Of a stretch of 31,951 nucleotides of DNA, positions 3,292 through 31,544 are shown in pieces. Position 1 is the first letter of the stretch; each line of letters opens with the position of its first letter. A program made the position numbers and the translations under genes. The notes beneath the pieces are model-generated. The model saw nothing but the letters and a program-made list of their open reading frames with translations, was not told where the DNA came from and made no database searches. Where the stretch lies: NCBI GenBank assembly GCA_964493035.1, contig CAZBNQ010000002.1:1-31951 (forward strand), read 5' to 3'. Origin of the DNA: an uncultured Hyphomicrobiales bacterium (GTDB lineage: Bacteria; Bacteroidota; Ignavibacteria; Kapaibacteriales; UBA2268).

Positions 3292-3531
3292 TTATGCTCC
3301 TAATACTCGAATAAATTCTAATCCGATCGATAAAGCCAGTGAATCTTTATCAGCAACAGTAGCTAATTCTCTTTTGGCTTCTTTTACGCTATTTACTACC
3401 TCTTTTGCGAGCTGAAAAATTTGTATTTTATCGGCGTCGCTTTCCCCTTGTTTGGTTGCTACGAGGCTGTTGATAGCTTGCGTGAGATTGGTTATCTCTT
3501 TCATATAGTAAATCTCTGATTGTTTTAACAA
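3292..3531 (-). CDS. Hypothetical protein (lysis block)
   Basis: Helical 79-aa ORF ending 4 nt before the next start; overlaps the upstream gene by 104 nt; start uncertain. Confidence 0.5.
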   Translation of the reverse strand: MLKQSEIYYMKEITNLTQAINSLVATKQGESDADKIQIFQLAKEVVNSVKEAKRELATVADKDSLALSIGLEFIRVLGA

Positions 3532-5376: not shown

Positions 5377-6330
5377 CTACGCCTTGGTATTTGTGATCAA
5401 GAAACCTGCTGTATTCATACAGATTTTTGGTTGATAGTAGTCAAATACTGCTACTTTTTGATATCTACCATATTGGCCTTCAGCTTTGCCAGCAATAGGA
5501 TAACCTTGCATTTGGAATGTATAACCAAATGATGGTGAATACATACTGCGTTTATCAAATGGACTCTTAGGCACATATGCAAGAACTGCGACATCACTCC
5601 ATAAATCAATAAAATCACCAGTTATTGGATCTTCATAAACACCTGATCCAATAACTACTTCAATTGGATTGTCCTTTGTTGATAATTTTGTTGAAATCAA
5701 ATCCTCTGTTACCATCGCACTTCCTGAGTATTTCACAATATCAATCAAAGTTTGATGCTCTTGAAGTAATTTGAAAGAAGATTCGCTTAAGAGCAATACA
5801 TTAGGCTTCTTTACTGTTTTTGCTCTAATCGTCGCAATAGCATCCTGAAGCTGATCTATTGGTTTTGAAGCTGCATTATCCCAGCAATCAGTAGTTGTCA
5901 ATGCTAATGAGTTACCACTTGCATAATTTGCTGAATCTTGAATGATTTGGACGCGTGCATATTCTTTCTGAAGCTCAAGAGAATCATAAAGAATACGTGT
6001 GTTATGAGTTTCCAAATCAATAATGTCGGCTGGTGCTTTCATTTCTCGATGATCAATGATGGTTTCTAAACCATGTTCTTCAAGTGAGAAATCACCGGTT
6101 GTATATGTATCTGTATTAATTTGTTGAATTTTGTCATCCTTAAAACCCAATTTTGAGTCATGGATCTTAAAGCTGTCTTTGCCGAAGATCGGGAATTTCC
6201 CACGCTCATATTTTACTGGCACTGTAGGCAATAATTTACTACCTACAAAACTTTCATTGCTAAAACCTTGAATAATGTTGGTTAACATTATATCTTTGTT
6301 TGCAAATAATTTATCTATTCTACCCGGCAT
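5377..6330 (-). CDS. Major capsid protein (HK97 fold, Mu-like/phage cap E type)
   Basis: 317 aa, coupled to the protease gene; LTNIIQGFSN...KPNVLLLSES...W..VAVLAY...PSFGYTF pattern. Confidence 0.85.
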   Translation of the reverse strand: MPGRIDKLFANKDIMLTNIIQGFSNESFVGSKLLPTVPVKYERGKFPIFGKDSFKIHDSKLGFKDDKIQQINTDTYTTGDFSLEEHGLETIIDHREMKAPADIIDLETHNTRILYDSLELQKEYARVQIIQDSANYASGNSLALTTTDCWDNAASKPIDQLQDAIATIRAKTVKKPNVLLLSESSFKLLQEHQTLIDIVKYSGSAMVTEDLISTKLSTKDNPIEVVIGSGVYEDPITGDFIDLWSDVAVLAYVPKSPFDKRSMYSPSFGYTFQMQGYPIAGKAEGQYGRYQKVAVFDYYQPKICMNTAGFLITNTKA

Positions 6331-7607
6331 TAGAGTCTCTCCATGATTTTTGTCAATTCTGTTGCATATGATGTGTTGTTCTTGATTGATAAACGCTCAG
6401 CCTCATTGTTGATACGTAAACGATCTTCGTCGTTCTCGATATCCATGTTTTTTAATTCATCGTCACTCAAACCTGCTTCATCAGCGAGATTTGGTTTACT
6501 TAATGGGGTTTTGAGCTGTTCGATCGTGTTATTTCTTGCTTCGATTTCCTTAATTTTACTTTCGTAAAGTGAAATACCGTCAGCATTTTTCAAAGTCTCC
6601 TCATTCTTCTTAAAATGAATAAGGTTGCGTTTCAACTCAAATTGATTTTGCTCATTATTTTCATATGGCAAAATCTTATTTGATAGTCTGGATATAGCTG
6701 CTTCAACTTCAGCTTCGATTTTAGAATCCTGAAGTTGACTCTGAAGTGATTTATATTTATTAATCTCTTCTACATGTTGAGCAATCTGAGCATCTTTAGT
6801 CTTGATTTCGTTATTAGCGGTATCAAGTTGTGTTGCTAAGTTTGCAATTTGGGTCTCAAAAGCTTTTTTTTCTTCTACTAATACCTTATTTTGATTTTCT
6901 AAGGTAGTAGCATCGTTATCACGCTTAAAAAACTTCTGAATCCACTCTTGTATATCAGCCATTTCTTCTTCGTCCTTTTGTTTGTTAGTGATATTCTCGT
7001 TAATTATTTGATTCATCCATTCAAATTCAGTATCATTCAAAATTCCAGTATTTAAAGAGTTCTTTAATATTTTTTTTAGCTCAGCTCCTGTATTTGCGGG
7101 TATTGGCACAATTGATATCTCTGTTAATTCTGATTTAGTAATAAGATCATAACTAGTGCGCCATTTTGGTAAATTCAAAGTAGCTCTTTCTTCTTCTGAC
7201 AATGGGATTTCTGTATAATCATTTGCGTTCAATCCAATTGAAGCCATCTTAAAAACACCAATATCCACCATTTTTTTAACAAACTTGGATTCATTAGTTT
7301 CCTCATGGAACCAGATATCAGCGTATAAGTCAGCTCCTTCCGCCCATGTATTCAAAGCTATACCAACTGGGAATGTATACCTATTGTGAATGAACAGTAT
7401 TACAGGATTGTTTAAAAATTCTTTAAGATTAATACCTGCCGTGATGAATTTCCACCCATTTCTATTAATCCTCTCATCAGATACTTTCCAACGATAAACT
7501 GTTTTGCCTTTGTAAATATCTTGTGATGAATTATTATTTATTTGAAAAATATTTGGTTTTTTTTCAAAATCCATCATTTTTTCTTTGTCTTTTACGTCAG
7601 TATCCAT
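6330..7607 (-). CDS. HK97-type (S78) prohead protease fused to a coiled-coil scaffold
   Basis: NPVILFIHN, ASIG and LTEISIVPIPAN motifs; C-terminal half is coiled coil. Confidence 0.85.
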   Translation of the reverse strand: MDTDVKDKEKMMDFEKKPNIFQINNNSSQDIYKGKTVYRWKVSDERINRNGWKFITAGINLKEFLNNPVILFIHNRYTFPVGIALNTWAEGADLYADIWFHEETNESKFVKKMVDIGVFKMASIGLNANDYTEIPLSEEERATLNLPKWRTSYDLITKSELTEISIVPIPANTGAELKKILKNSLNTGILNDTEFEWMNQIINENITNKQKDEEEMADIQEWIQKFFKRDNDATTLENQNKVLVEEKKAFETQIANLATQLDTANNEIKTKDAQIAQHVEEINKYKSLQSQLQDSKIEAEVEAAISRLSNKILPYENNEQNQFELKRNLIHFKKNEETLKNADGISLYESKIKEIEARNNTIEQLKTPLSKPNLADEAGLSDDELKNMDIENDEDRLRINNEAERLSIKNNTSYATELTKIMERL

Positions 7608-7671
7608 ATCGCTAATCCATTGTTAATTCTAACTTTCTGGCAATTTAACAATTCAAAACCTGAAATATGAA

Positions 7672-7791
7672 CCGATTTCCAGTCGGATTTCCAGTCGGAA
7701 ATTCCGTCGGATCTTAAGGCTGAAAATCAGTCGGATCTCAAGTCTGAAATTCCGTCGGATTTCAAGTTCGTTTTTCCGTTCAAAATTCCGC
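7672..7791. repeat. Ten degenerate tandem 12-bp units (consensus about CGGAWWTYCMGT), several with dyad symmetry
   Basis: ccgatttccagt cggatttccagt cggaaattccgt cggatcttaagg ctgaaaatcagt cggatctcaagt ctgaaattccgt cggatttcaagt tcgtttttccgt tcaaaattccgc. Confidence 0.9.
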
Positions 7792-7826
7792 ACTTTTGTA
7801 ATATTTAATATTATAAAGAGGTTAGC

Positions 7827-9188
7827 GTGATTAATGACAATTTCAATAAATACATTGAAATAAATATAGATAAATTGGTTAAAGCCAATTGGAATTATAA
7901 GGAAGATGATGAAGTCAAAAGAACTCAATTGACTGAAAATATCAAAAGAAATGGACAAGTTGAAAACATTCTCATTAGAGAATTAGAATCTGGGTTTTAT
8001 GAAGTTTTGAATGGAAATCATAGGTTAGATGTATTTATTGATCTAAATTACGATAAAGTAATCTGTTATAACTTCGGCAAAATCTCGCTTGCTCAAGCTC
8101 AAAGAATTGCAATTGAAACAAATGAAACAAAATTCCCTTCTAATCCAGAAAAACTGGCAAAACTTATTGAAGAAATCAAGTCTGAGTTTGATTTCGATGA
8201 TTTAAAAACTACTCTTCCATTTACTGATGATGATTTTAGAGATATGGAAGCCCTCGCAAATGGTCTTGCTGATGGCATCCCTGATGATATTAATGATATT
8301 CAGGATGATAATTCTAATATTCCACTTCCGGATGAACCAGAAACAATTCTTGGAGACCTATACGAATTCGAATCTGAAACAGTCAAACATAGATTACTAT
8401 GCGGTGACTCGACCAGCACTGAAGATTTAGATAGATTGATGAACGGTGACTTGGCTCACATGATACATACTGATCCACCCTACAATGTAAAATACGCTGA
8501 ATTCAATAAATCTCGTGGGAATGGTAAAGACTGGACTGATTCATATTGCTCTGCATGGGATGATGATATGAGTGATGATGATTATAAGACATTTTTATTT
8601 AATTTCATCTCAAATGGCAAAAGACACCTTATTGAATACGGTCATTTATATATCTGGCATTCTACTACTTACTATTGTGAATTGCTCGAAGCACTCAGAA
8701 AAGCTCAGATCCCATATGATAAAGTACCCCTGATTTGGGTTAAACAAGTTGCCCCACTCTCATGGGCACGTTATGGCAGAAAGCATGAACCATGCGTATT
8801 TGCAGGCAAAGGTGCTACAACTACTGCAGGTGACGGGGCTCGTTGGTTCGGGCCTAATAATGAAGTTACTATTTGGGAAATTGACAGAGATCATAATGGT
8901 GATTATATTCATCCTACTCAAAAACCACTTGCAATACCTTCTCGAGCCATTAGAAATAGCTCCCGACCTGGTGAAAATGTACTTGACTTGTTTATGGGAT
9001 CAGGCAGCACGTTCATTGCGTCAGATATACTTCACCGTAATTCATTCGGAATGGAGCTTGAACCAAAATTCTGCGATGTAATTGTAATGAGATACGCTAA
9101 ACATAAAACTAAACAAAATCAATCATTCAAAATATTTAAAAACGGACAGGATATTACTAATCACATTATTAATAAAATAAGTGAATAA
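7827..9188 (+). CDS. ParB/Srx-domain DNA amino-methyltransferase (N6A/N4C)
   Basis: EVLNGNHRL (ParB/Srx), TDPPYN (motif IV), HPTQKP, LDLFMGSGST (SAM-binding). Confidence 0.9.
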   Translation: MINDNFNKYIEINIDKLVKANWNYKEDDEVKRTQLTENIKRNGQVENILIRELESGFYEVLNGNHRLDVFIDLNYDKVICYNFGKISLAQAQRIAIETNETKFPSNPEKLAKLIEEIKSEFDFDDLKTTLPFTDDDFRDMEALANGLADGIPDDINDIQDDNSNIPLPDEPETILGDLYEFESETVKHRLLCGDSTSTEDLDRLMNGDLAHMIHTDPPYNVKYAEFNKSRGNGKDWTDSYCSAWDDDMSDDDYKTFLFNFISNGKRHLIEYGHLYIWHSTTYYCELLEALRKAQIPYDKVPLIWVKQVAPLSWARYGRKHEPCVFAGKGATTTAGDGARWFGPNNEVTIWEIDRDHNGDYIHPTQKPLAIPSRAIRNSSRPGENVLDLFMGSGSTFIASDILHRNSFGMELEPKFCDVIVMRYAKHKTKQNQSFKIFKNGQDITNHIINKISE

Positions 9189-9795
9189 CATGGGTAGGCC
9201 TAGAAATCCAAATAAAAAAAATAGACAACTCGTTGCTCCGGAATGGAGCATTCAGCCCAAAGAAAAGCCTGAAAACTTCGAGATGTTTAAGATGTATAGA
9301 ACCATGAAAAAAGGGCGGTCTTTAGAGGCCGTCCTTCGATCAATCGGTACTCCGGATCATCTACTTAAAAATAGAATTGGATGGATTTGCAGAATTGCAG
9401 CAGATTGGAGATGGGTTGAGAGGTGCGAACTATACGAAAAATGGCTTGATGATCAGCTTATTGAATCTGAAGTTCAAGCAAGAAGAGATATGAAAAAGCG
9501 ACATTTGAAACTTGCCATGAGTGCTCAAGTAGCTACAGCAGGTATTATCAAGGAATTTGTTGAACTTAAAGAAAATAAAAAAATCTCACTTGATAAAATG
9601 AAATCAACTGATGCTTTCCAATCTCTATTCAAATCAATTGAAAAATTGATTTCTGCTTCTGAATTCGAACGCAAAGTACGAGGCGAACCTGATTCAGTCT
9701 CAGTTGTTCACAATACTCATCAAGACTATGATGAAATGAGTCATGATGAATTATTACAAAAGGCTAAAGATCATGGATTTGTCAAATCTAAATAA
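9181..9795 (+). CDS. terS: Putative terminase small subunit
   Basis: Directly upstream of TerL; F-x-x-Y...RSL-x-x-V...W-x-W-x-ER helical motif; start may be ATG 9190. Confidence 0.65.
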   Translation: MNNMGRPRNPNKKNRQLVAPEWSIQPKEKPENFEMFKMYRTMKKGRSLEAVLRSIGTPDHLLKNRIGWICRIAADWRWVERCELYEKWLDDQLIESEVQARRDMKKRHLKLAMSAQVATAGIIKEFVELKENKKISLDKMKSTDAFQSLFKSIEKLISASEFERKVRGEPDSVSVVHNTHQDYDEMSHDELLQKAKDHGFVKSK

Positions 9796-11440
9796 CAATG
9801 AACTCGATAAACTCTTATCAGCGCTAAGAAAATCTTATGCGCGGAAGAATCTTATTGACTTCACTGGATACACATTTGACAGATATCAGCCAAACTGGCA
9901 TCATTATCTTATCGCAGATCGATTAGAAATGCTTGCCACAGGCAAAATTAAACGGCTTATTATTAATATGCCACCAAGACACGGGAAATCAGAGTTAGTA
10001 TCTATTCGATTTCCCGCTTGGTACCTCGGCAATAAACCTCACAAACACATTATTGCTACATCTTACAATGCCTCTCTAGCTGCAGATTTCGGTAAAAAAG
10101 CACGTAACGTAGTTGCTTCTATCGAATTTAAAGAGGTCTTCAGACACGCCAAATTATCTGAAGAATCCGCTGCTAAACTCAATTGGACACTTGAGGAAAG
10201 CTTCAGCAACAAACCTTGTCCATCTTGCGGATCAATAAACTGGCAAAAGAAAGCTTTTGGACGTGCTATTTGTAAGTCTTGCGGTGCTCTCGGGGAGTTT
10301 GCAGGATCCAGAACACTTGGTGCTTATTATGGTGCCGGTGTTGGTGGTGGTATCACAGGTAAAGGTGCTGATTTACTTATTGTCGATGACCCGGTTAAAG
10401 ATAGAAAAGAAGCTCAATCCGAAGTATATCGAAAGAATGTTTGGGATTGGTTTACTTCTGCAGCCTACCCCAGATTGCAAGGTGATAGCCTCGTTTGTAT
10501 TTGCCAGACAAGATGGCATGAAGATGACTTGACAGGCAAAGTAATTAATTATAAATTTGGTGATGAACCTTGGCATGTACTATCTCTTAAAGCTATAGCT
10601 GAAGAAGATGAAGAATATGAAATATTTAATCCTGACTACATTGAAGCACTTGGAACCAACAAAGTTTTCAGATCCAAAGGTGAGGCATTGTGGGCTAGTC
10701 AATTCCCCATCAAAAGACTGTTAGAATTTAAAGCTGGTTCTTCATATGAGTTTAATGCTCAATATCAGCAATCCCCACAACCAGCCTCAGGCGGATTGTT
10801 TAAACGTCATAATGCTCGATATGCGGACCAGATTGTAGGTGGATATTATAACTTACATGACGGACCAAATACAAAAGTTGTATCCATTGCTAATTGTTAT
10901 AAATTCGCTACTATGGATTTAGCTTATAAAGAAAAAGAATCTGCCGACTATACTGTAATCGCCACCTGGCTTCTTACTCCTGATAACGACTTAATACTTG
11001 ATGATATATATCGTGAACGTATAGATGGTGCTGAACACATGAATTTAATTTGGCAAGTATTTCATAAAAATCACCCATCAGTTATTATCGTTGAAGACTA
11101 TGCTTACCAGACTTCATTACTTCAAACAGCTGTAAATAATGGATTGCCGGCACAAGGTTTAGGTGGAGGCAAGGGCGATAAATTTACAAAAGCCATACCA
11201 ATTGCAGGCATGTTCGAAATGCATAAAGTATTCTTCAACAGAAATATTCCTATCATTGATGATATTTTGTATGAATTAGCAACATTCCCAACTGGCAAGA
11301 ATGATGATATTGTCGACGTTTGCTCATTTGCAGGTCTGCATATTTCTAATATTGCATTATTAAAATCTGTTCCATTGGCAACTAAAGATAGAAATATTCC
11401 CAATTTTAGTAATAAAAGACAATTTTACAAACAATTATAA
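9743..11440 (+). CDS. terL: Terminase large subunit
   Basis: MPPRHGKS Walker A, LLIVDDP Walker B, QTRWHEDDL, nuclease MDLA...ADYT, KNDDIVD. Confidence 0.95.
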   Translation: MMNYYKRLKIMDLSNLNNNELDKLLSALRKSYARKNLIDFTGYTFDRYQPNWHHYLIADRLEMLATGKIKRLIINMPPRHGKSELVSIRFPAWYLGNKPHKHIIATSYNASLAADFGKKARNVVASIEFKEVFRHAKLSEESAAKLNWTLEESFSNKPCPSCGSINWQKKAFGRAICKSCGALGEFAGSRTLGAYYGAGVGGGITGKGADLLIVDDPVKDRKEAQSEVYRKNVWDWFTSAAYPRLQGDSLVCICQTRWHEDDLTGKVINYKFGDEPWHVLSLKAIAEEDEEYEIFNPDYIEALGTNKVFRSKGEALWASQFPIKRLLEFKAGSSYEFNAQYQQSPQPASGGLFKRHNARYADQIVGGYYNLHDGPNTKVVSIANCYKFATMDLAYKEKESADYTVIATWLLTPDNDLILDDIYRERIDGAEHMNLIWQVFHKNHPSVIIVEDYAYQTSLLQTAVNNGLPAQGLGGGKGDKFTKAIPIAGMFEMHKVFFNRNIPIIDDILYELATFPTGKNDDIVDVCSFAGLHISNIALLKSVPLATKDRNIPNFSNKRQFYKQL

Positions 11441-11449
11441 AAGTGAATT

Positions 11450-13063
11450 ATGATATTTCTTCCAAATGGCGCAATCGCAAAAAGCCAATATGATAAATCA
11501 AGCTTGAAATCCAAGCTGAAACTTCTAGACCAAATGTATAGCCGTTTATACAATATCATCCCCAATCCTGATAATAGAATCAGATCTGAAGGGATGGCTG
11601 TATATGATAAAACAATCGATGATCCTGTAGTAGGTGGATCAATAGATACTATTATGGAGTCTGTAAAATCACTCGAATATAAAATTGAACCTAATGGTGC
11701 AAATGCTAAAGAAATTGATATCATAAAAGAGTTTTTAATAAATTTGATTGATGACAATATCTTCGGCAAAATAGTAAATGCCATGTTCTATGGGAATCAA
11801 TATATCGATGTGGTTTGGGACGACTCTACCGGATATCTTAGCCCTATAATTGCAGAATCCCGTCCACATGAACATTTTGTTTACAAATTAAATGAAGACC
11901 AGACTAATTTTGAACTTCATTACTATCCTGAAGGTAGTTTTTTGAATTCAATCCCAATACCAAATTACAAAATTTTAGTCCCTACTTTTAAAGATACTTC
12001 TAAAAATCCATACGGAAAAGGCTTGCTCTCAAGTTGTTATAAGTCTGCTTTCATCAAGAATAACGCTTGGGATTTGTGGGCAATTTTTGTAGAAGATCAT
12101 GGTATGCCTAAAATCGATGCCTCTATAAGTATGGGATTAGCCAATACTCTAAAATCTCAATTTCAGTTAGATGATACTCAGCTTGTAAACATGATACAAG
12201 AACAATTACAGACACTTAGACAAGATGGAGTATTTACTCACTATGAAGGTATATCTGTAAATCCTTTATCAACTGGCAAATCAGATGATGGTGTTACACA
12301 TAAAGATTTGATGGATTATTGTGATAAGCAAATTGCTATACTTCTATTAGGTCATAATGGTTCTTCTCAATCTACACCCGGCAAACTTGGTAGCGAGGAT
12401 ATGGCTTATACTGTGCTTGATTCTCGTATTAGAAGTTATGGCAATTTTGTTGCTGCTAATTTAAATAAGTTAATAGCATGGTTCCATGAACTGAATTTCA
12501 ACGTTGGAAAAGCTCCAAAAATCGAACTTTACCAGAAAGATGGATTATCGAAATACAAGCAACGTGCAGAAGTTGACCAAATTCTTACAACTATGGGATT
12601 ACAGTTAACTGCAGATTATTTCTCTGAAAACTACAATATCGACAAAAAATATATTGTCGGTTTTAGTCAAGCATCTACAACAAGTGAGCCCCCTGCACCA
12701 CCACCCAAAAAAGCTGATGTCAAGAAAAATCACTCCTGCTCATGTGATCACAAATTCGAAAATGCTTCAAAAATGGAAGAGAGTGAGGACATTCTTGATG
12801 CACTTGATGGTTTATCCGAACACATCATTAATTTAGATGAATATCAATCAATTCATGATGACACGTTAGCAAAAATTATAAAATTTGTAAACTCTTGTGA
12901 TAACTATGAAGATATGCAAGAGGGCATTATTGACTTATATCCTACATTAGATTATAAAAAATTACGAAACATCTTAACTAATATGATGCTTATTTCAAGT
13001 GTTTTAGGCGAATCAATTGTAAATACTGAGGTTGAAGATGGCAAGACCAAAGATAACAAGTAA
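11450..13063 (+). CDS. Portal protein, Mu gp29-like (DUF935)
   Basis: W-x-x-F-x-E-x-x-GMP, DYCDKQIAILLLGH, GKLG motifs; follows TerL. Confidence 0.85.
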   Translation: MIFLPNGAIAKSQYDKSSLKSKLKLLDQMYSRLYNIIPNPDNRIRSEGMAVYDKTIDDPVVGGSIDTIMESVKSLEYKIEPNGANAKEIDIIKEFLINLIDDNIFGKIVNAMFYGNQYIDVVWDDSTGYLSPIIAESRPHEHFVYKLNEDQTNFELHYYPEGSFLNSIPIPNYKILVPTFKDTSKNPYGKGLLSSCYKSAFIKNNAWDLWAIFVEDHGMPKIDASISMGLANTLKSQFQLDDTQLVNMIQEQLQTLRQDGVFTHYEGISVNPLSTGKSDDGVTHKDLMDYCDKQIAILLLGHNGSSQSTPGKLGSEDMAYTVLDSRIRSYGNFVAANLNKLIAWFHELNFNVGKAPKIELYQKDGLSKYKQRAEVDQILTTMGLQLTADYFSENYNIDKKYIVGFSQASTTSEPPAPPPKKADVKKNHSCSCDHKFENASKMEESEDILDALDGLSEHIINLDEYQSIHDDTLAKIIKFVNSCDNYEDMQEGIIDLYPTLDYKKLRNILTNMMLISSVLGESIVNTEVEDGKTKDNK

Positions 13064-13730
13064 AGACATCATCTATTGCTTTAGCCTTCCACCTGAAGAA
13101 GCTATCGAGTATTTTAAAAAACTTGGTTTAGCTCCTTCTGATAACTGGATAGACACATACAATGCTGTAATGAATGATGCATTTGCTATTGCGGGCCAAA
13201 AGAATATGGATATTATTCAAGCCTGCTCTGACTTTATCGCTGGTGCAATTGAATCAGGTATCAGTCTGGATAAATGCAAAAAAGGACTTGAAAAAATAGT
13301 TACTCTACGTGATTGGCATAGAGATTTAGTCATCCAGCAAAACATTTCGAATTCTTACAATGCCGGTAGGTACACTAAGCAACAAGAATTAGCTGATACA
13401 GTTCCCTATTTGGTCCCAAAACTTGGCAATCGGTTAAATCATACTGCAGGATGTCTTTGGCTTATCGGCAATAAGATGTGTATTAGGGCTGATGACCCGG
13501 ACATTAAACTAATTTACAGCCCTAGACACTTCAGATGCTCACTCTATTGGCTGTCAATTACGGAATTTAGACGTAAAAGTTTAGGACTTAAAGTTGTTAA
13601 GGTTAAAGATATACCTAAAGCATATCTTAATGAAAAGCATTTTCAAAGAACTCCAAGTTCCGGATCGTACACGCCTGATCCAAGTAAGTATAATGAAAAA
13701 TTGTATGAATATTTCAAGAAATCAAAATGA
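13038..13730 (+). CDS. Mu gp30/F-like head morphogenesis (minor head) protein
   Basis: FSLPPEEAIEYF...AFAIAG...SYNAGRY; ATG 13038 with a GAGG SD. Confidence 0.75.
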   Translation: MARPKITSKDIIYCFSLPPEEAIEYFKKLGLAPSDNWIDTYNAVMNDAFAIAGQKNMDIIQACSDFIAGAIESGISLDKCKKGLEKIVTLRDWHRDLVIQQNISNSYNAGRYTKQQELADTVPYLVPKLGNRLNHTAGCLWLIGNKMCIRADDPDIKLIYSPRHFRCSLYWLSITEFRRKSLGLKVVKVKDIPKAYLNEKHFQRTPSSGSYTPDPSKYNEKLYEYFKKSK

Positions 13731-14281
13731 GTGTGAATTTAATATTAGCTGAAGCAGAAGATGCCATATCTTCGTTGTTTTACTCAAGACAACGTAATAT
13801 GTCACAATTTTATCGTGGTGTCGGTGAAATATTACTATATTCATTATCAGAACAATTTGATTCAGAAGGTGTAAGATACTATGGTAAAAGATGGGAGCCA
13901 TTAGCAAAATCAACAAAAGAAGACAGAATTGCAAAAGGTTTTAGTGCCTCTGGCATACTTAATCGACGTGGTGGTTATGCAGGTTTAGCAGGTTCTTTCA
14001 CTTCTAAAATTTTTAGTGATGGAGTCTCTATTGGTACAAATTATGAATATGCTGCAATCCATCACTTTGGTGGAGTAATTTCCCATCCGGGTGGCACACC
14101 TTTTAAATTTGCTAAAAATGGTATTATTGTTTTTGTTAAAAAATCAACCAAAAATCCAGCTGGTTTTACACGCCCTCACAAAATTAGAATACCTGCAAGA
14201 CCAATATTCCCAAAAACTCTACCTCAAGAAGATATCGATGATATCATAGCTTTGTATTCACAAATAATGGGTTGGTCCTAA
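13727..14281 (+). CDS. Mu gpG-like virion morphogenesis/tail completion protein
   Basis: F-x-x-EG...WEPLAKST...IGTNYEYAAIHHFGG...IPARP. Confidence 0.85.
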   Translation: MSVNLILAEAEDAISSLFYSRQRNMSQFYRGVGEILLYSLSEQFDSEGVRYYGKRWEPLAKSTKEDRIAKGFSASGILNRRGGYAGLAGSFTSKIFSDGVSIGTNYEYAAIHHFGGVISHPGGTPFKFAKNGIIVFVKKSTKNPAGFTRPHKIRIPARPIFPKTLPQEDIDDIIALYSQIMGWS

Positions 14282-16080: not shown

Positions 16081-16374
16081 CTACCTTCTTCTTTTCTGAT
16101 TTTCTTCCTTTATCTCCCTAATAAATTGTCTAACAACATCGACTGGTCTATCGATATTTCGGGATAGTATACTTGGTTCCTTATCAATGTTTTTGGCTAT
16201 ATATCTTTTTAATACATCATTCATATAGTTAATCTTTGGGAGCTGTATCTTATGTCCGTCCCAAACGCGAAGTATTGATCTGACAACATCAAGATTACTC
16301 TCTTCAGCAAGTATCTTCAAGTCTAGTGGCAGATCATCCACCGTTAAGTTCTCAAGGATTTTATCTACTTCCAT
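16081..16374 (-). CDS. Mor/C-like late transcription activator
   Basis: DDLPLDLKILAEE...VVRSILRVWDGHKIQLPK followed by a C-terminal HTH; last gene of the early operon. Confidence 0.65.
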   Translation of the reverse strand: MEVDKILENLTVDDLPLDLKILAEESNLDVVRSILRVWDGHKIQLPKINYMNDVLKRYIAKNIDKEPSILSRNIDRPVDVVRQFIREIKEENQKRRR

Positions 16375-16651: not shown

Positions 16652-17876
16652 TAATAAAATCCTTCTTGAAATAATAAGTGGTATAATCTTTTTTCTTTAT
16701 TACAGCCTTCATTATTTTTTCTTCAATGCCACCCTCAATAAATAACCAATGAACAATTGATTTTGTTTGTCGGTTCATAGATTGAAGTCTTGAACGTGCT
16801 TGCCAATATTGCAGAGATGAGAAATCAATATTATAAAATATCAATATATCTGCAGTACTTAAGTTAATCCCCATGGATCCTGCTCTTATCTGTGATATAA
16901 ATATTTTATTATTTGATTGATTAAATTCCTCTGGACTTTCAGTTGTATTGCCAAGTACTTTTTTAAGAACATTTCCTTCCGCAGTATATTTATAGAATAT
17001 TGCTATTTTTTTGTCTTTGTACTTGTCTTTAATATAACTTGCTTTAGAAATATCAATATATTTAATCTGTCCTGATTCAGTTATAACAGTACCTGAGCAT
17101 ATTTGATGAATCTTACTCTGCAATTTTACAGCTGAATCACATACAATTTCTTCACCATCTTGAAATCTAAAGTATCTATCCTTCACAATCTTTTTTATAA
17201 GTTTAATAGCATCTTCTCTTGGTGCTATATTAATTATTTCTTCAATAATTTCATCATTTTCAAAACCAGCTTCTTCACGTGTATAAGATAAAAAGTATTT
17301 CCTTATAACTAATTCGATTTTATCAATCAATGCGTTTTTATAGTCATTGATTGGTACACCGTTTATTTTTCTCTGAGTTACAATCACATAATCTTTAGCC
17401 CATTTATAAAAATTCGAATAGACATTAAATGGGCTATATTTTGATACCCAAAACTGATGAAATATTTGTGAATATGATTCAGGTGTCGGTGTTCCGGATA
17501 ACATTATCATTGGCAAATGATTAAAATGCTCTCTGATCACTTTTGTTACTTGATTTGGTTTAGGATATGCTCCGTTAATATGTGATTCGTCGATTATCAA
17601 AAGGTCGTAATCCTTGTTTAAATTATTTCGTAACTGTTCAAAATTAATAACATTTATCGAGAATTCAAAGCCTTCTCTTTCATAATCTTCATAAATTGAA
17701 TTAATAGCTTTTTTCTTAGTCAAAAAAAGAACGCTTTTAACCCCACAAAGCCTGGCTGTTTCGAGTGCTATTGTTGTTTTACCAACTCTCATTTCTATTG
17801 ATAAATACACAATAAACAAAGTTTTTAATATTTCAGATGCATTTTCAGCTAATCTTCTTTGATAATCTCTAAGCAT
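16587..17876 (-). CDS. SF2 (SNF2/DEAD-like) helicase
   Basis: LRDYQ, RVGKT, LIIDESH, LSGTP, MGINL, QARSR. Confidence 0.9.
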   Translation of the reverse strand: MLRDYQRRLAENASEILKTLFIVYLSIEMRVGKTTIALETARLCGVKSVLFLTKKKAINSIYEDYEREGFEFSINVINFEQLRNNLNKDYDLLIIDESHINGAYPKPNQVTKVIREHFNHLPMIMLSGTPTPESYSQIFHQFWVSKYSPFNVYSNFYKWAKDYVIVTQRKINGVPINDYKNALIDKIELVIRKYFLSYTREEAGFENDEIIEEIINIAPREDAIKLIKKIVKDRYFRFQDGEEIVCDSAVKLQSKIHQICSGTVITESGQIKYIDISKASYIKDKYKDKKIAIFYKYTAEGNVLKKVLGNTTESPEEFNQSNNKIFISQIRAGSMGINLSTADILIFYNIDFSSLQYWQARSRLQSMNRQTKSIVHWLFIEGGIEEKIMKAVIKKKDYTTYYFKKDFINGVENTEENQGLFDRTRSLCS

Positions 17877-18506: not shown

Positions 18507-18610
18507 GGTTATTTTAGTTACTTTAGTTACTCAATTTTGGGAAAACATATATATGTATATACATAGAGCTATTTTACCAAAAATCAGTAACTAAAATAAC
18601 TAAAGTAACT
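18507..18610. repeat. Candidate replication origin: 34-bp imperfect inverted repeat, three 9-bp iterons per arm, AT-alternating centre
   Basis: Left arm ggttatttt agttacttt agttact caattttgg; right arm (reverse complement) agttacttt agttatttt agttact gatttttgg; centre catatatatgtatatacat. Confidence 0.8.
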
Positions 18611-18611
18611 A

Positions 18612-20951
18612 TTAAAAAGCTCTTGGTTGTTCTCGATAGTTATTATTTAAGTCAATACCAATTAGATATTTAGCATTTTTGGTTCCACGTTCACTTGATA
18701 TACCTTCTCTGTTTTCTATAGCTCTATAGAATTTATTTTTAGGCATAGGTATTTCTTTAGTTTTATTACACCAATTGAGATAAGCATCAAGAAGATCTGA
18801 TGCAATTACTTTATTAGCTGGTTGTAAATCACAACATTCAGCGACAAAATCGGCTAAACGATCCTCTTCATCTCGATATTCTTTAGTGGCATTTACAACA
18901 TTTTCAGGAGGCTTTAATCCTTCTTTCAGATAAAGTTTCCATCCTTCAAGAATCCAATTAAAAATGCCGTTTTTCTCTAGGTCGAAATCAGCCATTAGTT
19001 CAGCTTGTGGCCTTTGTTCTTCCTTTGGGATGGTATTAGTAAATGGAATCATATGGAGTCTTCTCCAAATACCTTCATCAGTACCTTTTACACGAGGTTT
19101 ATGATTACCATAAAGCCAAAGAGTATGTGTTGGTTTAAAATCGAAGTAGTCTTTATGCATAAACCTTGCTGTAATTTGGTCTCCACCTGTGAGGTTTTTA
19201 ATTTTATTCTCATCGAAAGACCTATTATCAGGCAATTCTTCAGCAACCACCAAACGTGATCCTGGTAGTCGGGCCACATCATTGGGGATTGAATCGTTGT
19301 TTTTTAATAGTAACATTTCTGTAGGTGCTTTTTGAAAATAATCTCCAAAAACCATCTTTATTACGTTAAAAAATACAGATTTTCCGTTTTTCCCGGCTCC
19401 ATGGCAGAAGAAAAGAGCCTCTTCCAAGTGAGCACCACAGAGTGATAGCCCGAGGGATTTTTGAACAAACTTGATAGTGTCTAAACCAAATACTTGACTG
19501 TTTTCATATGTAACAAACATCGTATGTAGAGATGCTTCAAAGCAGATGGCATCTGCATCGGGTTCATACTCAACACCGGCACATTTTGACAACATATTTG
19601 AGGGACTATGAGGAAGAAACTCGTTGGTTTTGAGGTTATAAGTCCCATTTTTTAAGTTAAACAGATAAACATCCGAGTCAAAATCGGAATTTTCACAACG
19701 AATTCTTTGATCAGATGATGCCAGGGCAACCATAGCTTGTAATTGAGCTTTCGATTCGGATTTTAGAGCATGTTTGATTAATTCTTGCTTTTTTGTATCC
19801 TGTTGAATCGATTTAGCTTCATTATAAAGATTTCGGATGGTCTTTTTTGCCAGCTGCATTATTTTATTCGTTCTGTCCTCTTCCCAGTACCGACCGTTCC
19901 AAATATGCCATCTTCCCGAAGTATGGTTAAATCTGACTTTATTTGCATATTGGTCTGCAAATCGTTCAGAATTGCCTAACTCGGTTAACTGATATTGTAT
20001 GGATTCAGTTGTTTTATTAACAAGTTCCCCTCTATCATTTACTGTTACAGTTGAATATTTATTAAACAAAGATGAAGTATCATACCCATTTTGTTTAGCA
20101 TAATAAACAACTGAGGCAATAGTAGGTTTGGGGGATCTGTGTTTGATCCGATAAGCAGTTCCAACCTTATCATCAGGAGACCACGAGTCAACAAGAGATA
20201 TGGCAGTGTGTTCATCAAATGTATTTCCGATAGCAGATACAATCTTTCCCCATTCATCATAAGCCATCCGTTTTGGGATATAAGACAACATTTCTTTAAC
20301 TTGATCGGGAGTAATTGTATCGGGCATTTTCCGTTCATAACTCTGCAATGTTTTCTGCTCAGTGTCTGCCTGCCCTAAAATCCTATGTAATACAGATTTT
20401 TTGAGTTGTTTTCCGAACACTAAATATTCTGCATCTTTTGAGCCATAATAAAGCCTGTCAATGTTTTTACAAGATTTATCAGACTGAAATTTATTGATAA
20501 AAGCTTTCGCAATTTCAGCATACTTAGCCGGATCAGATATATATTCAGGCAGTAGGAAGACAATCCTAAATCTATGATGTTCTTCAGTATGTGAAGGAGT
20601 AGTATAGATAAGTAGTGCATTATCATGAAGCCAAGGATCAGCCATAGCGATATCAAGCGGCAAATAACCTTCCTGTATCGTCATAATCCTTTCATCATAT
20701 TTCTTTGTTGTAGGATTATAAACTTTAGTAGTATTGTCAATATCAATAGGCAGTAAAATTGCTTGGGATATGTCAGCAATTGCGGGCTTCTTGCTTGATG
20801 CACTAATTCTAAGAACACCCTGAGAGAAAGCATAACCACTCCTGATATGTTCAATCAGCATATCAGGAGTGAATTCAGTGTTTTCCCATCCGGGTTTGGT
20901 CGGATCGTCTTTATTGATGAGATTTCTATTTATAGATAGTTTGAATTTCAT
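18612..20951 (-). CDS. Primase/P4-D5-family SF3 helicase
   Basis: N-terminal primase-like IDID...YTTPSH...RFRIVF; PriCT-2-like YDEWGKIVSAI; TELGNSERF (D5-N); GAGKNGKS Walker A. Confidence 0.9.
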   Translation of the reverse strand: MKFKLSINRNLINKDDPTKPGWENTEFTPDMLIEHIRSGYAFSQGVLRISASSKKPAIADISQAILLPIDIDNTTKVYNPTTKKYDERIMTIQEGYLPLDIAMADPWLHDNALLIYTTPSHTEEHHRFRIVFLLPEYISDPAKYAEIAKAFINKFQSDKSCKNIDRLYYGSKDAEYLVFGKQLKKSVLHRILGQADTEQKTLQSYERKMPDTITPDQVKEMLSYIPKRMAYDEWGKIVSAIGNTFDEHTAISLVDSWSPDDKVGTAYRIKHRSPKPTIASVVYYAKQNGYDTSSLFNKYSTVTVNDRGELVNKTTESIQYQLTELGNSERFADQYANKVRFNHTSGRWHIWNGRYWEEDRTNKIMQLAKKTIRNLYNEAKSIQQDTKKQELIKHALKSESKAQLQAMVALASSDQRIRCENSDFDSDVYLFNLKNGTYNLKTNEFLPHSPSNMLSKCAGVEYEPDADAICFEASLHTMFVTYENSQVFGLDTIKFVQKSLGLSLCGAHLEEALFFCHGAGKNGKSVFFNVIKMVFGDYFQKAPTEMLLLKNNDSIPNDVARLPGSRLVVAEELPDNRSFDENKIKNLTGGDQITARFMHKDYFDFKPTHTLWLYGNHKPRVKGTDEGIWRRLHMIPFTNTIPKEEQRPQAELMADFDLEKNGIFNWILEGWKLYLKEGLKPPENVVNATKEYRDEEDRLADFVAECCDLQPANKVIASDLLDAYLNWCNKTKEIPMPKNKFYRAIENREGISSERGTKNAKYLIGIDLNNNYREQPRAF

Positions 20952-30365: not shown

Positions 30366-30437
30366 TTTGTAAATAAATTTTGTTAATTTTTTTTGTTAAA
30401 AAGTTTTATAAAAATTTTTGTTAAAAAATTTGTAAAA
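30366..30437. repeat. Five TTTGTWAA copies upstream of the RHH-like gene (operator-like)
   Basis: tttgtaaa 30366, ttttgttaa 30378/30391/30416, tttgtaaa 30429; TATAAT on the minus strand at 30360-30365. Confidence 0.5.
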
Positions 30438-30462
30438 TTGTTTTATAGTTTATATTTTTGAT

Positions 30463-30774: not shown

Positions 30775-30860
30775 AATTACAAATGTAATTTAACAGAAAT
30801 TTTTGTTTATTACAAGAAATTTTTGTTTTATTTTTGTTATTTTTGGCATTTTTTTGTTTT
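30775..30860. promoter_or_regulatory. Immunity/switch region: palindrome, direct repeats and phased T-tracts
   Basis: AATTAC-AAAT-GTAATT at 30775-30790; AGAAATTTTTGTTT at 30795 and 30815; TTTTG with G at 30805, 30825, 30836, 30845, 30856. Confidence 0.55.
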
Positions 30861-30887
30861 TTAATAAATATTTCATACTGGATTAAT

Positions 30888-31544
30888 ATGAGTGACGAGT
30901 ATAAAAGATTAAATGAAGTAGCAAAAAAGTATTTTGAGAATCTAGGTGTTTTAGCCATCAAAATTGGTAAAACACAGGGCTATTTTTATTCTTATAAAAA
31001 TACTTCCAATTTTGGTAGACAATTATTAGATGAATTGCGAATAAAAGCGAATATAAATCCTGATTTTATTATGACAGGCAATGGTAATATGTTAATTTCG
31101 GACCAAGATATTTCTATCAAAGAAACAGAACACAAAGGTGTACCATTTTACCCAATTGATGTCACAGCTTCATTTGTTAGAAGTTTTGATGATATTCAAG
31201 CAGTACCGGATTTTTACGTGGATTTTAAACCACTAAATGATTGTACTGCATATTTTACTGTTGTAGGAGACTCTATGTATCCTAAATATTCACCTGGAGA
31301 AATAATTGCTATAAAAAAAATTGTTAACCATGATTATATTCAATGGGGTGAAGCTTATCTTGTCATTACTACTGAAGAAGCAAATAGCATGAGAACTATA
31401 AAGTTGGTACATAAACACAAAGATAGAAGATTTATTATTCTCAGATCTGCTAATCCTCAATACAAAGGTGATATGGAAGTAGCAAAAGAACATATATTAG
31501 AAATGTTTATTGTAAAAGGGCGTGTAAAGCTCGAAAATTTATAA
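30888..31544 (+). CDS. cI/LexA-like repressor with an S24 autopeptidase domain
   Basis: N-terminal HTH, INPDFIMTGNG linker, VVGDSMYPKY (catalytic Ser), RTIKLV (Lys), LRSANPQY; start at MSDEYK. Confidence 0.9.
   Translation: MSDEYKRLNEVAKKYFENLGVLAIKIGKTQGYFYSYKNTSNFGRQLLDELRIKANINPDFIMTGNGNMLISDQDISIKETEHKGVPFYPIDVTASFVRSFDDIQAVPDFYVDFKPLNDCTAYFTVVGDSMYPKYSPGEIIAIKKIVNHDYIQWGEAYLVITTEEANSMRTIKLVHKHKDRRFIILRSANPQYKGDMEVAKEHILEMFIVKGRVKLENL

Follow-up and report, generated by a model that had tools for sequence, protein, structure and literature searches.

Between the two divergent late operons of a temperate phage lies a tandem array of eleven head-to-tail 12-bp units (positions 7658 to 7789, with no strand assigned). 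Most likely it is where a DNA-binding protein of the phage, either a late activator or else a packaging protein, has its private docking site. The window analysed, a stretch of 31,951 nucleotides, is the entire contig (C2) of a 3.09-Mb MAG with 432 contigs, and carries part of that phage. Among related phages, the position and period of the array are conserved while its sequence turns over. Protein-binding repeat arrays at pac sites, replication origins and centromeres are already well known, as are Mor/C boxes. The unusual feature is the combination of a regular array of up to 11 units with a fixed place between divergent late operons, a position and period kept across a clade of uncultured FCB-group phages, and a rapid turnover of the units with an occasional inversion.

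The array was found with TRF, a repeat search and reading in register. Each unit has a core of 6 bp, GTCGGA or a variant of it, together with an A/T-rich spacer of 6 bp, and from 7658 to 7789 the units are, in order, ACCTGAaatatg, AACCGAtttcca, GTCGGAtttcca, GTCGGAaattcc, GTCGGAtcttaa, GGCTGAaaatca, GTCGGAtctcaa, GTCTGAaattcc, GTCGGAtttcaa, GTTCGTttttcc and GTTCAAaattcc, for a total of 11 x 12 = 132 bp. The core is GTCGGA in five of the eleven and GTCTGA, GGCTGA, AACCGA, ACCTGA, GTTCGT or GTTCAA in the remainder; five of the eight occurrences of GTCGGA in the 32-kb window fall inside the array. The central units are the best kept and those at the edges are degenerate. An earlier note on this DNA had described ten units at 7672-7791, which was right to within one degenerate unit, the count now being eleven and the limits 7658-7789. 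The higher GC content that it reported for the array was also borne out (0.44, compared with 0.23 in the flanks), and both of the palindromes it named are present, CGGAAATTCCG at 7696-7706 and CTGAAAATCAG at 7720-7730.

The 12-bp periodicity between divergent late operons, likewise described earlier, was confirmed by TRF, autocorrelation and reading in register. TRF reported a period of 12 with 3.2 copies and a score of 55, and a period of 24 at 7674-7767 with 3.8 copies, an 80% match and a score of 117, the top score in the window, the 24-bp super-period being stronger than the 12-bp period. The repeat search returned six in-register copies at spacings of 12, 12, 12, 24 and 24. Autocorrelation within the array peaked at lags of 12, 24 and 36, where it was 0.55, 0.63 and 0.54, respectively, with other lags at around 0.2; none of 5000 shuffles matched these values, and the array provided the highest-ranked 133-bp windows of the whole contig by autocorrelation. 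A chance origin of the autocorrelation is rejected, and the array is not a product of chance. It also has partial dyad symmetry, with a measured dyad match of 0.58 over 121 bp. Because the idealised unit, (GGAAATTCCGTC)n, nearly equals its own reverse complement, the array can be read both as direct repeats and as a dyad chain. No second copy of the unit was found in the 32-kb contig, in the MAG or in the contigs of five relatives, and a DNA search of the array region against a cultured-phage collection matched nothing. An Rfam search of 7400-8000 on both strands gave no match, and an RNA element was set aside as an explanation.

The genes on either side belong to two operons that diverge at the array and hold all of the late genes visible on the contig. 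The leftward head(/tail) operon opens with a 425 aa head maturation protease/scaffold-like protein (6330..7607, minus strand) and continues with the major capsid gene (5377-6330, minus strand), a decoration-like gene and further genes. The rightward packaging operon (7827-14281, plus strand) opens with a ParB-N domain fused to an N6/N4 DNA methyltransferase (7827..9188, plus strand). It is followed by the small terminase TerS (9181..9795, plus strand; phrog_6299, E 3.8e-13), with an N-terminal helical (HTH-like) domain and then a long helical hairpin, and by TerL and the Mu-type portal, Mu F-like and Mu G-like genes (9743..14281, plus strand). The gap from the head gene start (7607, minus strand) to the methylase start (7827, plus strand) measures 219 bp, in agreement with the earlier figure of about 220 bp, and the array lies upstream of the gene that opens the TerS/TerL/portal operon, at a distance of 36 bp. 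The packaging operon converges with a long leftward early/replication operon (30717 down to 14278), which is faced by a CI-like repressor gene (30834-31544, plus strand). The last gene of the early/replication operon encodes a 97-aa Mor/C-like HTH protein (16081..16374, minus strand).

The array fills the space between two outward-facing TTTTG boxes, which we take, from the pattern of Bacteroidetes promoters, to be -33-type elements of FCB-group promoters. One candidate element, for the head/tail operon, is at 7654..7658 on the minus strand, around 47-51 nt upstream of the head-operon start codon; the other, for the packaging operon, is at 7794..7798 on the plus strand, 28 nt upstream of the methylase start codon. 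A TTTTG box 28-50 nt upstream of the methylase start is common to the window and most relatives, and 12 of 20 relatives have TTTTG within -65..-19 of that start, compared with 2.5 expected. Most relatives have CAAAA/CAAAG, which is TTTTG on the opposite strand, about equally far upstream of the head gene, and the spacer from array to box ranges from 4 to 36 nt. A promoter scan detected no sigma-70 consensus promoter between the array and the methylase start, and on the head side the sole sigma-70 match (7626-7599, minus strand) scored 9/12, which is chance level. A terminator scan of the 219-bp gap gave nothing meaningful. On this reading, the two boxes would mark the late promoters.

Relatives were found by searching viral, genome and metagenome collections with the methylase and with sub-alignments of TerS, and contig look-ups and whole-genome searches added to the set; a single-protein scan with the head protease found no relatives. 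The set comprises about 29 non-redundant loci with the same pivot, in which the head protease (minus strand) faces the methylase/TerS genes (plus strand), and is drawn from Kapaibacterium, Ignavibacteria, Chloroherpeton and Bacteroidetes MAGs and from viral contigs. DNA identity among its members is only about 65-70%. Around 25 of the 29 carry an array of 2-11 units at the same place, and the period is always 11, 12 or 13 bp. The array is a clear tandem repeat in 19 relatives and short or degenerate in six (L020, L121, L120, L198, L208/G136 and G137), and four have none at the pivot (L091, L094, L119 and L019). Absence from relatives with the same gene order, one of the points that the earlier note had named as counting against its proposal, was seen in these four. 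A two-unit super-period of 24-26 bp is frequent, occurring in the window and in L002, L012, L127, L013, L014, L095, L018, L122 and L006. Dyad symmetry is present in the arrays of the window, L002, L095, L015a and L020, and purely direct repeats with no dyad symmetry make up those of L024, L017 and L093.

The unit sequences themselves differ between sub-clades, as illustrated by AATCCCCAAACA (L024), CCGTCAAATCGT, AATTTGCAGAAG, TGCTAAGCAATTC, CAATGTAATATCG, ATGCAAAAACGC and CAGAAAAATCG. Unit families track the sub-clades, with CGATTT in L017/L005/L122, GCAA[AT] in L013/L014/L006/L018/L012, TTTGGGGA in L093/L024 and ACGTGGG in L096/L097, and in each of six long contigs the unit is confined to the pivot. 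Within collinear flanks, the array has opposite orientations in L096 and L097, and again in L024 and L093. The copy-number comparison proposed in the earlier note was carried out and revealed near-identical strains that differ by exactly one unit: L007 has 3.3 copies and L024 has 4.3, L016 has 8.2 and L017 has 9.2, and near-identical strains of the window phage, on contigs from other samples, have one extra 12-bp unit after 7747. In a 695-bp strain contig, 7 of 18 substitutions lie inside the array, and several of these seven turn units of one type into the other type. The surrounding genes can also change. G137 keeps its array at the pivot although five extra genes part it from terS (3-4 kb), L208/G136 and G137 have a 13-bp array (GTAnnGAnTAC) at a pivot with no methylase gene, and in L198 a degenerate array lies beside a methylase remnant. 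The proposal of a cooperative protein-binding array at the divergent pivot is supported by a place and period kept in about 25 of 29 relatives while the sequence changes; the parS/methylation candidate that came with it is not, as discussed below.

The reading favoured here, tentatively and with somewhat less than even confidence, is that the array is a phage-specific upstream activating region, a set of tandem docking boxes for the 97-aa Mor/C-family activator. This protein combines helices at the N-terminus with a DG..I.IP motif and a tri-helical HTH at the C-terminus, a Mor-like layout. Homologues (20-61% identity) lie at the same early-operon-end position in 14 other prophages of the clade, so that arrays and a Mor-like gene occur in the same prophages. 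Five of the 15 family members match Pfam Mor (PF08765; best E 5.8e-5), the most-matched family, and a profile of the Mor-like family matches Mu Mor (PDB 1rr7) over its full length, weakly, at E 0.019. The predicted C-terminal HTH aligns to Mu C in its RNAP complex (9l0x) with a Z of 4.5 and an rmsd of 1.8, though fold Z-scores to Mor and C of 4.2-4.5 are in the generic HTH range, and the window's own 97-aa protein had no Pfam Mor match. Membership of the Mor family is thus weakly supported. If the 97-aa protein is the late activator, its sites must lie in the 219-bp gap, which holds little besides the array. Geometry and promoter position are the grounds on which an activator is preferred to TerS as the reader of the array. 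Mu Mor and C act as centrosymmetric tetramers over around 26 bp, on A+B sites that form an imperfect dyad just upstream of the -35 element (bioRxiv 10.1101/2025.05.02.651988), and this two-site geometry matches the 12-13-bp units, the 24-26-bp super-period, the dyads of several of the arrays and their position next to the TTTTG boxes.

Several features of the locus agree with docking of an activator. The array lies exactly between the outward TTTTG boxes, whose positions are conserved in relatives, and the stretch from array to methylase start is free of sigma-70-type promoters. Pivot arrays recur in about 25 of 29 relatives with units that are unrelated or related only within sub-clades, and they stay at the pivot with five extra genes before terS (G137) or with the methylase gone (L208). 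The inversions (L096/L097, L024/L093) would be harmless to an element that serves divergent promoters, and a unit unique in the contig and the MAG fits a region that drives all of the visible late genes. In this mechanism, the activator would accumulate and then bind the 12-bp units pairwise, one 24-bp super-unit per tetramer, much like the A+B sites of Mu, and spread cooperatively along the array. The bound protein would recruit host RNA polymerase to a promoter at each array end, so that the head/tail and packaging operons are switched on together. Both the binding of the units by the 97-aa protein and activation as its effect are proposed from this arrangement. Unit sequence and activator may co-evolve to give each lineage a private late switch, with replication slippage and unit conversion adding, removing and homogenising units.

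Other observations sit less easily with an activator. Beyond the weak family membership and the lack of a Pfam Mor match for the window copy, each of the known Mor/C promoters has a single A+B site instead of 5-11 tandem units, and the purely direct repeats of L024, L017 and L093 suit a centrosymmetric tetramer poorly. A dyad of around 26 bp just upstream of a weak -35 would be the Mu pattern, and here the array does abut the TTTTG boxes, but the units nearest to them are the most degenerate and the central ones the best kept, and several relatives are dyad-free. With a spacer of 4-36 nt between array and box in relatives, no fixed geometry of activator and polymerase is evident. The array-less L091 and L094 still have a Mor-like gene, while in the phage of L097/G134, which has an array, the Mor-like match is marginal (E 0.007). 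Unit families follow the TerS tree and, equally, the methylase and Mor-like trees, with identical clusters, so that co-variation fails to single out the activator; no informative recombinants that part the unit family from the TerS, methylase or Mor-like gene were found among the relatives.

On the activator reading, the phage resembles Mu at several levels: a small HTH protein, the candidate activator, comes last in the early region of a phage whose head genes are of the Mu type, its proposed binding region is just upstream of a -35-type element, and the two-site imperfect dyad of Mu, around 26 bp (PDB 1rr7, 9l0x, 9l0y), is comparable to the 24-26-bp super-unit. In Mu, however, a promoter has a single A+B site, while two divergent promoters here have 5-11 units in common. 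Many relatives of the window phage have direct rather than dyad repeats, and by sequence the 97-aa protein is weakly related to Mor/C (E 0.019 against 1rr7, with Pfam Mor matched by 5 of 15 family members). Unlike Mu, the window phage is not transposable, and the hosts are of the Ignavibacteriota/Bacteroidota type, with another promoter grammar. If the array is a Mor/C docking site, the family would extend beyond Mu-like transposable phages of Proteobacteria to temperate phages of Ignavibacteriota/Bacteroidota-type hosts. The multi-copy array common to two divergent late operons would then represent a new promoter architecture.

Recognition by the packaging machinery is the possible, though on balance doubtful, alternative: the array would be a pac site for a small terminase multimer, with one HTH domain per unit as in the pacL/pacR model of SPP1/SF6, marking the phage concatemer for the first cut and headful packaging. 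Its overlap with the operon control region means that it may also serve in autoregulation. The array directly precedes an operon of TerS, TerL, portal and Mu F/SPP1-gp7-like genes, which is the SPP1 gene order, and it is unique in each genome fragment examined. The SPP1 pac region covers promoters and the beginning of terS, and direct repeats occur there in sets; TerS rings measure around 90 A across and hold adjacent HTH motifs roughly one DNA turn from each other, such that some 100 bp could be wrapped (PMC4737164). The window array is 132 bp in length, and about 11 units is the most seen in any relative. No protein of the module evolves faster than TerS (around 30% identity, compared with 55-60% for the methylase), and variation in it, indels included, is greatest in what is predicted to be the third helix of its N-terminal domain. 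G136 and G137, with their homologous arrays, share near-identical TerS N-termini. The nearest cultured relatives of TerL (around 30-34% identity) include Aaphi23, which we take to be a headful packager; together with the Mu/SPP1-type module, they suggest headful packaging for the window phage. Against this, some 85 loci with a more distant TerS of the same family are mostly array-free near terS, an intact TerS is present with no array in L091, L094 and L119, and the G137 array is at the promoter pivot, 3-4 kb from terS, rather than beside it. An inversion of the array between relatives would reverse the direction of packaging. Palindromic units and the two-unit super-period point to dimers or tetramers rather than a Cn ring, and periods of 11-13 bp (a rotation of 17-86 degrees per unit relative to 10.5 bp) misfit one rigid ring. 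Assembled contigs of public sequencing runs showed no pile-up of molecule ends. Comparison of the TerS fold with solved small terminases gave no significant match: for the predicted structure (pLDDT 82), Foldseek and VIA-align matched only generic helical hairpins, and PDB and Pfam profile searches with TerS were empty. The gene adjoining the array raises a further candidate, which is extremely improbable, namely that the ParB domain of the methylase loads at or binds to the array as to a parS, or that the array is centromere-like, of the ParR/TubR type. Its appeal lies in this adjacent ParB-N domain and in the R1 parC (10 x 11 bp) and pBtoxis tubC (7 x 12 bp) arrays, which are similarly built and lie at the promoter of their own operon. 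The methylase, however, is 47-90% identical among phages with unrelated units, the region between its catalytic motifs IV and I is conserved, and its variable part is an acidic linker, at about residues 110-175, with no variable segment that looks DNA-binding; a cognate, sequence-specific ParB that co-varies with its site is not what is seen. Neither around 60 loci with ParB-domain-only homologues nor methylases of <=40% identity have an array directly upstream (in L129, a 10-bp array is around 870 bp upstream of such a methylase homologue), and arrays are retained where the methylase is missing or truncated (L208/G136, G137, L198). The window's scanned genes include no ParA/ParM/TubZ-type gene. 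The parS-like, possibly methylation-gated site put forward in the earlier note is, on these grounds, effectively rejected. A methylation-site array as in P1 pac is not supported either, as no short motif common to the units of different phages, methylation-type motifs included, was found.

Known repeat sites offer partial likenesses to each of these possibilities. With SPP1/SF6 pac and G1P, the window phage shares the packaging order of TerS, TerL, portal and Mu F/gp7-like genes, and a repeat-bearing region that overlaps promoters (candidate promoters in the window) upstream of the terminase operon; the model there is a ring of HTH domains that wraps around 100 bp (PMC4737164). SPP1 differs in having three pairs of dissimilar boxes and largely sequence-independent binding, whereas here the array is regular, with up to 11 units, and a methylase gene (or, in G137, several genes) intervenes between array and terS; in addition, no sequence or fold match of G1P to the window TerS was found. 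Should the array be a pac site, no TerS recognition array described so far would be as regular, and it would offer a natural test bed for the model of a DNA-wrapped ring. The pac site of phage P1 has hexamer arrays that are bound by PacA under the control of Dam methylation. Phased short repeats as a terminase recognition site (a possible one here), and a phage methylase linked to packaging, are common ground, but the units here have no common methylation motif across phages, the array is outside terS, and the methylase is dispensable for the presence of the array. Plasmid centromeres (R1 parC/ParR, pBtoxis tubC/TubR) and origins of the SaPI/P4 type have 7-10 direct repeats of 11-12 bp at the control region of an operon, bound cooperatively by small dimeric proteins and hypervariable between replicons. 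The length and placement of the repeats and their variability between lineages are alike, but the scanned genes of the window include no partition motor gene, and the window phage has a separate, probable SaPI-like origin at 18508-18611. Under either an activator or a pac reading, the clade supplies around 20 natural variants in unit sequence, orientation and copy number at a fixed position, a set suited to specificity swaps and to the prediction of cross-talk between co-resident prophages.

An activator and a terminase need not exclude each other, and a combined role has been considered, although it is unlikely. The array would act as a lineage-private "address label" for a multimer that polymerises along it, with one unit per subunit and up to about 11 units, and that fires both late promoters and marks the DNA for terminase, one nucleoprotein structure thereby coupling late transcription to the initiation of packaging. 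Unit turnover, with a co-evolving reader (Mor-like tetramers and/or a TerS ring), would insulate the phage from cross-activation and packaging piracy by co-resident prophages and satellites. To our knowledge, regular arrays of up to 11 units are not a feature of any Mor/C or pac system. It is decidedly unlikely that the array is nothing but a slippage-prone tandem repeat with no sequence-specific binder, tolerated where it lies and perhaps contributing only DNA shape (curvature, promoter spacing). Whole-unit copy changes between near-identical strains, decay at the edges and homogenisation in the centre are classical tandem-repeat dynamics, four relatives manage with no array, and the pivot of G135 accepted a foreign insertion. 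Neutral minisatellites are, however, not expected to hold position and period as these arrays do, being maintained independently at one spot in around 25 of 29 relatives at about 65-70% DNA identity, with a period that stays at 11-13 bp despite the replacement of the unit sequence. The GC-richer unit cores amid AT-rich spacers and unit families that follow the phage phylogeny also argue against neutrality. A replication-origin role for the late array, which the earlier note did not list, is unlikely, and its identity as an origin or accessory initiator-binding region, like SPP1 oriR or P4 crr, with iterons for the replication initiator of the phage, very improbable. Origins typically have perfect tandem iterons that repeat about once per helical turn, but repeat analysis located a probable origin of classical build elsewhere in the window (18508..18611, no strand), with inverted 9-bp iterons (TTTAGTTAC / GTAACTAAA) around a (TA)n-rich core. 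It lies immediately 3' of a PriCT/D5_N/DUF5906/Pox_D5 (D5/P4-alpha-like) primase-helicase gene, and G132 has a parallel build, with GAGGTAACAC iterons 3' of a VapE-type primase-helicase gene. The late array is neither linked to an initiator gene nor the sole set of iterons. The replication regions of the window and of G130-G134 contain no copy of the late-array unit, and the place of the array is constant across phages with three different replication modules.

The one point of contact between pivot and origin is in G135 (L205), where the late pivot bears a copy, around 300 bp in length, of that phage's own origin block, with an AT-rich (ATTTT)n stretch and 11-bp TGTTGnnnCAC iterons. The original block lies inside a putative replication-initiator gene (313 aa), the product of which we take, from its motifs, to be DUF4373-like. 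The copy at the pivot is a secondary insertion, being flanked by 22-bp direct repeats. The pair L205 and L208, whose TerS proteins are 79% identical while the arrays differ, does not count as evidence against TerS, because the L205 array is the inserted origin copy. G137, a sister of L205, keeps a degenerate array of the L208 type.

The late array, whose 12-bp units fill most of the gap between the divergent head and packaging operons, varies among strains of the phage itself. In sediment and biofilm metagenomes (runs X3 and X4; window 7692-7750), the phage's strains carry one more 12-bp unit, AATTCAGTCGGG, placed after window 7747, and substitutions in them turn GTCGGA-type units into GTCTGA-type units. 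These conversions amount to concerted evolution within the late array.

The same pivot has been built in other ways in relatives. At locus L125 (9710-9909; L015 is the same), it holds two unlike arrays in tandem. The first has a 12-bp period and palindromic GTCATATGAC-type units; the second, made up of nine A-rich units of 11 bp (TTTAAACAAGA / TTTAAAAGAAA), extends as far as the methylase ATG. In L198, a truncated remnant of the ParB-methylase (1813-1950) lies immediately ahead of terS and retains the N-terminal ~45 codons (...KLVKANWNYKED...), which shows that the operon can lose its methylase. Two more distant relatives, in which the methylase is ~38% identical, have 10-bp repeats at other sites. 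In L098, AAAAAAGCGG is repeated 5.6 times within terS (3369-3425) and codes for an insert rich in lysine within the variable helix region. In L129, twelve ACACTTTTAT repeats (430-555) precede the methylase gene at a distance of ~870 bp.

The Mor-like family, which includes the candidate late activator, is present in 1-5 copies per host genome (G065, G119 and G139-G144), presumably one for each prophage; G065 has copies in five places. Several related candidate activators would therefore coexist per cell, and this coexistence could drive private specificities.

A separate set of repeats probably marks the phage replication origin (window 18508-18611). Directly 3' of a D5/P4-alpha-like primase-helicase gene (window 18612-20951), inverted 9-bp iterons, two to three copies of TTTAGTTAC and three of GTAACTAAA, stand on either side of a (TA)n-rich core of 56 bp. 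The closest relative, G132, has a block of identical build with GAGGTAACAC as the iterons (L112 4680-4960). In G135, the contig of L205 (19040-19366 and 31480-31680, as reoriented by us; L205 380-700), an origin block of ~300 bp, made of (ATTTT)n and eleven 11-bp TGTTGnnnCAC iterons, occurs in two copies, recalling oriL/oriR of SPP1. One copy lies within the gene for a 313-aa putative replication initiator, which we take from its motif to be DUF4373-like, and the second has been inserted at the pivot between the head and packaging operons, where 22-bp direct repeats, AAAAAATT(T)ATTTATTGTCTGCA, flank it.

Repeats are also found in the early region. Close to the CI-like repressor, two small early genes are separated by around five 13-bp AT-rich repeats (TTTGTTAAAAAAT; window 30366-30444) with a 25-bp super-period; these repeats may serve as immunity-region operators. 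A second repeat family in L112, TTTATAAAGTTAAAAG (16 bp), occupies three sites of the early region (2-151, 9442-9470 and 17319-17353), which suggests another regulator with dispersed arrays.
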